A DNA stretch of 25,737 bases from Catajapyx aquilonaris (Eukaryota): contig KZ538008.1 of the NCBI GenBank assembly GCA_000934665.2, forward strand, positions 248,001 through 273,737. The letters are read 5' to 3'. The notes below the pieces were generated by a model. That model was not told the DNA's origin, ran no database searches, and saw nothing but the letters and a program-made list of their open reading frames with translations. The translations under genes and the position numbers were made by a program. Numbering within the stretch: the stretch's first letter is position 1; each line of letters opens with the position of its first letter. This document shows positions 7,647 through 10,600 of the stretch, piece after piece.

Positions 7647-10600
7647 ATGGCCGGGGAGGAGAGGGGAAGGTTGCATAGCGATGGCATCAAGGCACAGGTC
7701 GTGTCGATGGAAGACATTCCGCTCAGTGAGAATGGGAGCGCCAACACTGCTGCCGTGCAGGGGAATGGAGGGATGGCCAAGAAGGAAAAGAGGCAAGTGG
7801 GATGCACATGAAGACAGGCTGGTCTTTTTCAAGTTTCCTCTGACTGCTTTTGCATTTTGAAGAGTAGCATTTATTTCAGATAGAACCAAAGTTATGGAAC
7901 AAAAATTCTAGCATGATTTAAAATGTGTGATATGTGTAAGTGATGTGTGTTGTGCTAAAAGAAACGTTAGCCAGTATCAGTAGACGCAACACTTACTGGA
8001 CAAGTGTAAATCAAATATTACAGTGGAACCTGTATGTATGGAAATCACTATTTGACTTAATTTTCCACAAAGTTACACTTGCTACAGGAATACACATAAA
8101 ATCATCCACCAGGTTCAAACAAAAACTCCACATCTGATAGGTTTCTGTGATATTCAGGGTATAATATGCAGTGACCAAAAAAAAATGACCTTATCTGCCA
8201 TGGTAGTTTGTTGCATTACCAACCAAGTGATTGGCAAGGTCTTTGCTTATGTCACAACAGGAGCAAAGCACTGGCAGATGTGGACAAAGCCAACTGCTGG
8301 AGCTTCATTACTTTCTCATGGATCACACGCTTGATGATCCATGCCTATCGAAAGGGGATACACATGTGTGATATGCCGCCATGTGCACCGGTTGACAAGT
8401 GTGAGGCCAACACAATACGGTATGACTAAATAATAATTGTGGTCTGTATTATGTTTTACTGAAGATAATTTTTACAGATTGGAAGACTTGTGGCTGCGTG
8501 AGTTGAGGACACGTGGTCCAAAAGAAGCATTGTTGAGACGTGCAGTGTGGAGATTCACTTGGGCTCGTGTGATGATGAGCATGACCTGCTTCCTTTTTTG
8601 CATCATAGCTGGATTTCTAACTCCTGTAGGTACAGTGTAAATGCCTTGCAATGACTTATCAATATATTACGGGCACTTTCTCATAAGAGTCTCTGGGATA
8701 ATATTGTGCAGATAGCACATCATATACACCACGTATTCCTGGGTTGAATTTTACTAAGAGCATATTAAAATTTTCATCTCATGATATTTCATAATACTGT
8801 TCTTACTTTGTTTTTTCTTTGTTTCCAATAGACAATATTCATGCGCAAGCTGCTCGACTTTGTGGAAGACAATGAGGCATCCTTGTCGACTGGAATTCTC
8901 TGGGCTGTGGGGCTGGTGGTCATGGATTCTATCCGTATTGTACTAGCAACAGCAACATGGGCAATTTCAAACCGCACTGCTGTTCGTCTGCAAGCTGCTT
9001 GCTTGGGCCTCCTCTACAAAAAATCACTCTGCCTTAGCCACCTTAGTGAAAGTGCTGTTGGGGAACTCACCTCCCTCTTTTCCAATGATGGCCAGCGGCT
9101 GGTCAATGCAGTGACAATGGGCCCACTAATAGTTGGGGGACCAGTTACTGCTGTCTTTGGATGTATTTACATCCTGTACATCCTGAGTCCTTGGGCTGCA
9201 TGTGGGCTAGTTGTCTTCCTCCTTTACTACCCCTTACAGGTAAGGACAATCTTGCCTCCATCTGGTTTTCTGTGACATTACATGGTATTCGCAGATGCTG
9301 ATTATTATGCTTATGTTTCACAGTATTTCCTCTCACGAGCTATGGGTCGCATGAGACAAAAAATAGCTGCCCTTACTGATCAACGAGTGCAGCTGATTCA
9401 TGAGGCTATCACTTATATCCGTGTCATCAAGATGTACACCTGGGAAGAGTGCTTCCAAAAGAAGATAATGGGTAATGAATATTTTTTATTGTGATATATT
9501 GACACATTTTGGAATAAGATGCTGGCTATTTAAAATATCTTGTCTAGGATTAGCCAAGATTTTTAAAGGTCATAATGATGTTGCTTAAGATGACTGCCTT
9601 ACTTTTAGGGTTGAGAAATAAAGAGCGTAAGTGGCTGGAGAAGACTGGTCTAATTCAGAGCATGAGCTTGGCTATGGCTCCTGCCATTCCAAGTGTGGCA
9701 GCAATTGTCACTTTTCTGGCCCACACAGGTGCTGGTTACAGCCTGACTGCAGCCCAGGTGGGTTAATAGCACTTCTTGTTATGCTGCATGTGCAGCATGT
9801 GTGTAACTGTTTATCTTTTCTGCTGTTTGTTCTTTCTCTATGACTTCTCTTCCCAGGGCTTCTCAGTGATAGCGTTGCTTGTGGGTCGTATCCGTCCAAC
9901 GTTTGTGTTCCTGCGTGCTGCCGTTCAGAGCCTGGCAGAGATGAGCGTCGCCTTGCGCCGCCTGCAGGTTGTGTTGCAGACGCGTCTGTGCTCCCTTTTT
10001 TGGTAACAAAACACACAAGCAACGGTTCCCTCAATGGGCCTTCCCAAACCACCTTCATTGCTTTTATTGTCTTTTATTTTATCTCTTCTAACATGTCTTG
10101 ATCTTTTTGGTGTTGCTAACGTATTAATGTTGTCCAATGCGCACTAACCTGCAACTAATTCTGCAAGTGTCAATTGGTGGAAGGAACACAGTGATTTTCT
10201 GTGGATCTCCTAATTTTTTGTAGGCATTTGTGACCATCCTGTTCTACTACATTCTGGCCTTTTCGATTCGAACTATACCATATGCAGCTCGAGATGGTTT
10301 TGAAGGATTCCTTGCTTTACGAAGAGTACAGGTAAAAATATTTTGCACTGTGACTTACCAAAATTCAGTGATACTTTCATAATAACAGTAATGGCAATAT
10401 GAGGATTGAACTATCTACCAATGGGAAGGGTGTTTGAAATATTTTTTCACTATCACATGCACATGCTTAATGCTTATTCACCCTTTCACTAGTCACAAAC
10501 TGTGACTATACATATTTTATTTTTTGGATTGATTTTTACCCACAATCCCAATTCCATGCACTTGTGATTGTCAAAACATATATTTGCTTGTTCATATTTT

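Follow-up and report, generated by a model that had tools for sequence, protein, structure and literature searches.

A stretch of the Catajapyx aquilonaris genome (contig KZ538008.1 of assembly GCA_000934665.2, positions 248,001 to 273,737 of the forward strand; 25,737 nucleotides, hereafter the window) carries an ABC transporter gene in which two neighboring exons, A and B, each appear to encode most of transmembrane helix 6 (TM6). Does splicing choose between them, and would the choice alter what the pump exports? A sequence-only reading of the window had proposed that A and B are mutually exclusive exons of an ABCC5-like gene that serve as a substrate-specificity switch. We examined the gene, the two exons and the same exon position in other species.

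An ABCC5-type gene with two TM6 exons

We modeled the gene from tblastn alignments of four homologues, spliced joints in RNA-like contigs and a test of the reading frame. The contigs are Logan contigs of the single public run that contains this stretch. This run is not on record as RNA; its contigs are spliced and must therefore derive from RNA. They supplied 12 GT..AG joints and one GC..AG joint to the model. The features of the gene are as follows.

7647..14740, + strand: coding part of the ABCC5-like gene, 20 exons (18 constitutive plus the A/B pair)
9609..9757, + strand: constitutive TM5 exon, phase-0 end at ...SLTAAQ, aligning to human ABCC5 residues 384-432
9857..9967, + strand: exon A, 111 nt, 37 aa (GFSVIALL...ALRRLQ), derived-type TM6 unit
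9968..10223, + strand: A-B intron, 256 nt
10224..10331, + strand: exon B, 108 nt, 36 aa (AFVTILFYY...ALRRVQ), canonical-type TM6 unit
10625..10837, + strand: constitutive exon after the cluster, linker to NBD1, phase-0 start; joint 10837->10903 in an RNA-like contig

In this in-silico model, all four combinations of A and B leave the frame open up to a single terminal stop, with coding lengths of 1416 aa (A), 1415 aa (B), 1452 aa (A+B) and 1379 aa (neither).

Pfam matches to the exon translations place ABC_membrane (PF00664) at 8832-9239, 12532-12981 and 13288-14034, and ABC_tran (PF00005, NBD) at 10903-11097 and 13288-14034. The resulting domain order, TMD1-NBD1-TMD2-NBD2 with two ABC_membrane and two ABC_tran regions, is that expected of a short MRP. 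Upstream of the exon aligned with residues 200-332 of human ABCC5 there are about 151 residues, and an extra N-terminal TMD0 is absent. That TMD1 exon (8832-9239) scores 97 bits against human ABCC5 and 36 bits against MRP1, and the TM5 exon matches ABCC5 chains only among the sequences of solved structures, where human ABCC5 is the best relative of the gene. The nearest homologue, P0005, scores 1245 bits against ABCC5 and 774 bits against ABCC4. On these similarities we classify the gene as an ABCC5-type short MRP (ABC subfamily C) and not as an orthologue of ABCC1/MRP1, in agreement with the ABCC5-like identity first proposed. The TM5 exon is 58-67% identical to its counterpart in decapods, a centipede and Artemia. 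The window's own protein and its close relatives are absent from the protein collection that we searched, in which the best match to a 260-aa piece was 50% identical.

Two further features of the gene were observed. The first coding intron, 7793-8260, has a GC donor (GAG/GCAAGT) and an AG acceptor. It is spanned by an RNA-like contig that joins 7670-7790 to 8259-8409, the borders being 7792/8261 given three ambiguous letters. In the exon with which TMD2 begins, about 45 residues hold six N-x-T sequons (12556-12700: NMT, NQT, NGT, NGT, NQT, NQT), which follow a loosely repeated E/D-x-N-G/Q-T pattern and probably mark a heavily glycosylated extracellular loop.

The rest of the window contains several unrelated features. 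Upstream of the gene, the one GC-rich kilobase of the window (GC 0.60) contains an open frame of 296 aa (969-1859) that is rich in Pro, Ser and Thr and matches no Pfam family; over 1-1602 there is no cover from the RNA-like run. One unspliced 1376-nt contig of that run matches 2865-4240 on the - strand with zero mismatches and represents a transcript or UTR lying 5' of the ABCC5-like gene. Just 3' of the stop codon, over 14953-16000, the summed depth of this run's contigs rises from about 20 to 57-128; the contigs include many variants, with loose ends and one joint on the opposite strand, and the region has the look of a repeated element within or beyond the 3' UTR. Farther downstream lie a tRNA-Thr with anticodon CGT (16629-16701, + strand, ARAGORN), an A+T-rich simple-repeat tract with runs of Ile, Asn or Leu in several frames (20187-20502), and a small rhodanese-domain gene in two reading frames (21406-21888, + strand), the first of which matches Pfam Rhodanese (E = 6e-7).

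Exons A and B and the substrate pocket

Exons A and B are nearly equal in length and share phase 0-0, and either one alone preserves the frame. Exon A is flanked by ...ttcccAG and GTtgtg. Exon B is flanked by ...ttttttgtAG, with a good polypyrimidine tract before the AG, and GTaaaa (donor CAG/GTAAAA). The sequence-only reading had reported two intact phase 0-0 exons of 111 and 108 nt lying 256 nt apart, and each of these particulars was borne out. That both exons are intact, are bounded by AG and GT and are in frame singly counts in favor of their being alternative exons. The sequence-only reading had also described A as arginine-rich and B as aromatic, a contrast that holds for aromatic residues (three in A, eight in B) more than for arginines (five in A, four in B).

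Compared directly, A and B are only weakly alike (identity 9/36 with the C termini anchored, local score 25). When compared with 57 TM6 units of other species, A scored at best 68 (Homarus) and B 47 (a thrips). For A and B alike, the observed best score was reached in 0 of 500 shuffles, so the likeness of both to TM6 units is beyond chance. We looked for a third TM6 unit or a relic of one by tblastn of the 57 units over 9400-10900, where all matches outside A and B fell below 18.5 bits. A segment at about 10107-10214 that appeared A-like by eye was outside the top ungapped scores among 1159 intron positions and was rejected as a unit.

The joint 9757->9857, which leads into A and had been predicted, is present in one RNA-like contig of the one run at a depth of 3.5; the acceptor of A is used. 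The joints listed from this run's contigs include none into or out of B and none out of A, and none of the listed contigs spans B. Because the contigs drop rare variants, the missing B joints say nothing on B. The contig that contains the exon 10625-10837 also includes intron sequence 10511-10624.

We placed the A/B unit on human MRP5 (hMRP5, ABCC5) through the alignment of the TM5 exon, which assigns it to residues 433-468; as lone queries, exons A and B matched no PDB sequence at E <= 10. In the hMRP5 cryo-EM report, Lys448, Phe452 and Lys455 of TM6 are among the residues surrounding the pocket-bound peptide (PMC11156954). These residues fall at unit positions 16, 20 and 23, which upholds the proposal that A and B code for TM6. 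A vertebrate ABCC5 unit has K16, F20 and K23 at the pocket positions. Exon B, which also has P19 and E27, retains the triad as R16, Y20 and R23, the same basic/aromatic/basic pattern as TM6 of human MRP5 (8wi0, 8kci and related structures). Exon A has arginines R11, R13 and R20 together with Pro14, and the aromatic residue is missing at the F452-equivalent position.

We also compared B with 14 canonical 36-aa units from nematodes, molluscs, echinoderms, a hemichordate, a tunicate, a chimaera, centipedes and two arthropod paralogues, taking as consensus the columns in which at least 60% of the units agree. B equals the consensus in 9 of 11 columns. It matches the invariant A1, F2 and P19 and the near-invariant E27 and R34, and its two mismatches (M to L and V to L) are conservative. 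Retention of these columns would be surprising in an exon long out of use.

This conservation bears on the strongest competing explanation, in which A alone is used and B is a duplicate that splicing ignores or takes very rarely, a pseudo-exon not yet decayed. We regard this as a minority possibility, though one to be taken seriously. The sole RNA evidence concerns the acceptor site of A, and no orthologue of B was identified in other species. In addition, GC3 is lowest in B of all exons of the gene (0.33, near intron composition; 0.68 in A and 0.44-0.73 in the rest), which could reflect relaxed constraint, although with just 36 codons this value is only about 2 SD off the gene mean. However, B has retained an open frame, its polypyrimidine tract with AG, and its donor. 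The main counter-argument is that it also retains nine of the eleven canonical columns, all three invariant ones among them, and the pocket positions 16, 20 and 23. Furthermore, the 9/36 residues shared by A and B indicate that the presumed duplication is old, and an unused copy should by now be gone. A and B are a real and probably functional pair of alternative exons.

If so, splicing would normally take A or B, mostly exclusively, and would yield two pumps identical except for the 36-37 residues that make up most of TM6. The form with B would present the ancestral pocket face, basic, aromatic and basic at positions 16, 20 and 23. The form with A would present a derived face, with R13 and R20 (plus R11) set about one helical turn earlier and the aromatic residue lost, and this shifted face should alter the binding of anionic substrates. 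We infer the use of B, exclusivity in this species and the effect on substrates; together they would make the pair a substrate-specificity switch.

The same exon position in other species

We gathered relatives with the TM5 exon and then with a profile of this exon built from 11 sequences. The taxa found were decapods, a stomatopod, an isopod, amphipods, barnacles, Artemia, centipedes, Polyneoptera, thrips and Hymenoptera. In 120 ABCC5-like proteins, the segment between ...LTAAQ and the next conserved exon was scored for TM6 units.

One TM6 unit: 72 of 120 proteins
No unit (skipped): 18 of 120 proteins
Two units: 10 of 120 proteins
Three units: 1 of 120 proteins
Not classed (fragments or read-through): 19 of 120 proteins

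The 19 unclassed proteins include an amphipod model with four consecutive units. At least two distinct units were found in 18 of the 84 named species (the remaining 66 are uninformative; most species are present as one cluster representative), and a skipped model was found in 16 of the 84. Six species have separate isoforms, each with a different single unit, all of them automatic predictions.

Xylocopa sonorina: isoforms X2 and X3, different single units
Halictus rubicundus: isoforms X2 and X3, different single units
Lasius platythorax: separate isoforms, different single units
Schistocerca serialis cubense: isoforms X2, X3 and X4, three units
S. cancellata: separate isoforms, different single units
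S. nitens: separate isoforms, different single units

These isoforms, and those of Eriocheir sinensis, Trinorchestia longiramus and Artemia franciscana, belong to the same gene family as the gene studied here. The variable site in the insect and crustacean genes likewise lies right after ...LTAAQ, in phase 0, with units of 35-38 aa, and the models include forms with alternative single units, with several units or with none. Far from being confined to this genome, the arrangement is a widespread exon cluster of ABCC5-like genes; other species have from 2 to at least 4 units, and the window has two. That the exon is alternative beyond this genome is thus reflected in the models of ABCC5-like orthologues from many insects and crustaceans. 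The order of the units differs: here the 37-aa derived unit comes first and the 36-aa canonical unit second, whereas the A-like unit of 37 aa closes the series in bees, a stomatopod and an amphipod. The vertebrate ABCC5 proteins among the search matches have one unit, in contrast to the two found here. In the literature searched, we found no alternative TM6 described for vertebrate ABCC5, and the human ABCC5 splice variants described in the abstract of PMC1890297 concern exons in intron 5.

Several models carry two to four consecutive units (P0165, P0230, P0142, P0126, P0195 and P0007, from an amphipod, Artemia, a mitten crab, a crayfish, a locust and a bee). These are probably alternative exons merged by mis-annotation.

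Mutually exclusive use, as had been claimed for A and B, receives mixed support from these models. The single-unit isoforms of six species agree with it; the skipped, two-unit and three-unit models do not, and in public annotations exclusivity is not strict. We nonetheless think it very improbable that the main product of the gene includes both exons or skips both. The frame is kept in each form, and public models comprise 11 with two or three units and 18 skipped, among the latter P0129 and P0152, whose short, spliced contigs mark them as products of assembled transcripts. However, one-unit forms are the majority, at 72 of the 101 classifiable proteins. Judged from ABCC architecture, moreover, a second TM6 would give TMD1 an odd number of helices and skipping would delete the pocket helix, and either is expected to wreck the exporter fold.

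The kinship of the units gives some indication of their age. Many single-exon frames of unrelated genomes, vertebrates included, end at ...LTAAQ and run into GT, from which it follows that the phase-0 boundary is ancient. Within Malacostraca, four unit types recur in an amphipod, decapods and a stomatopod, indicating that the malacostracan cluster is old. Hexapod types 1 and 2 score higher against each other (mean 52.7) than against any of the crustacean types, so repeated lineage-specific duplication, or homogenisation, is no less likely than one ancient cluster. Orthology of the A-type with hexapod type 2 was considered and dropped, since type 2 scores a mean of only 41.2 against the malacostracan A-type, below 52.7.

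Exon A is closest to 37-aa units (Homarus, 68; Armadillidium, 67, with 15/37 residues identical) and is fairly close to a canonical snail unit as well (62). Exon B fits none of the malacostracan types; averaged by group, it scores best against thrips units (45) and canonical units (40). No clear orthologue of B was present among the units of other species that we compared, and a search of representatives with the TM5 exon returned 95 matches, none with a B-like unit; most of these matches are single-exon frames running into the intron after ...LTAAQ. In seven termite-like metagenome contigs, the TM5 exon is near-identical to that of P0005 and of named termite proteins and is followed by GTAAAAT. 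At these seven loci there was no TM6 unit in the 1-6 kb 3' of the TM5 exon, and in the two that extend for 6 kb downstream this points to a long intron.

The position of B among these units raises one more explanation, that B is a recent copy from a paralogous ABCC gene, brought in by exon-level conversion or insertion, and owes its canonical look to the donor. Although B is nearer to the canonical units of distant taxa (16/36 residues identical to those of nematodes) than to the units of its nearest orthologues, its local scores against the two "clade ii" arthropod paralogue units examined, 42-48, do not make it a close match, and its position, phase and length suit a local cluster; such an origin seems highly unlikely.

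We therefore favor, with reasonable though not full confidence, the explanation that A and B are alternative TM6 exons of an ABCC5-type exporter, of which one is normally taken, and that they are an instance of the TM6 cluster of insects and crustaceans. A broader hypothesis, to which we assign about an even chance, is that the ABCC5-like cluster is an old device of insects and crustaceans for swapping the pocket face (the K448/F452/K455 equivalents) so as to give differing substrate ranges, and that Catajapyx has a minimal pair of it, an ancestral B and a derived A, both in use.

Exclusivity and relation to known exon clusters

If A and B are alternatives, what would keep them exclusive? We considered nonsense-mediated decay (NMD), steric hindrance, incompatibility of splice sites and RNA pairings, and found no enforcing mechanism at A/B. 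Inclusion of A and B together remains in frame, both exons being multiples of three, so NMD cannot police the double form. The A-B intron, at 256 nt, is long enough to splice, which makes steric hindrance unlikely. The splice sites of the cluster are all of the GT-AG type. Nine inverted repeats occur in 9740-10640, none with support from relatives; in one, exon A and the A-B intron form a 14-nt pair at 93%, and in another the donor of A pairs with a site upstream of B. The predicted fold of 9850-10235 is not more stable than that of shuffled sequences (z = 0.61; 72 of 100 shuffles fold as well). The donor of A (GTTGTG) is further from the consensus than that of B (GTAAAA), and this might matter for exclusivity.

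If both exons are used, one gene would give rise to a pair of ABCC5-type exporters distinguished solely by the helix with three pocket residues, and so to a natural experiment on the way in which TM6 determines the substrates of MRP5-type pumps. The substrates reported for such pumps include cyclic nucleotides and glutamate conjugates, and heme in nematodes. The same position is variable in bees, ants, locusts, crabs, amphipods and brine shrimp, which offer tractable species for work on isoform expression and transport, and it may bear on the handling of pesticides and xenobiotics by pollinators and farmed crustaceans. The models also carry a warning for annotation, as automatic predictions often chain two to four units or drop all of them.

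Full-text searches, made largely outside the subscription journals, turned up no account of a TM6 exon cluster in ABCC5-like genes; the cluster may already be in some catalogue of mutually exclusive exons. Mutually exclusive exon clusters are established elsewhere in the ABCC family, human ABCC9 also having one. Among the MRP1-type genes, Drosophila MRP has eight interchangeable exons in one cluster (CG6214; PMC9741552, PMC6071210) and C. elegans mrp-1 has four 156-nt (3n) exons, 13A-D (PMC4165533). Several independent duplications across phyla are also reported for MRP1-type genes, as are competing RNA structures for the MRP1 clusters (PMC6071210, citing Yue et al. 2017). At A/B such a structure found no support.

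Like the clusters of Drosophila MRP, mrp-1 and ABCC9, the A/B pair consists of apparently tandem duplicated, frame-preserving exons of near-equal length in an ABCC transporter. The subfamilies differ, those genes being ABCC1/ABCC9-like and the present gene ABCC5-like, and because the gene is a different one, an origin independent of the Drosophila MRP (ABCC1-like) clusters is plausible. The A/B pair is thus a splicing device of a kind known from a sister subfamily, in an ABCC5-like cluster that is already annotated in other species.
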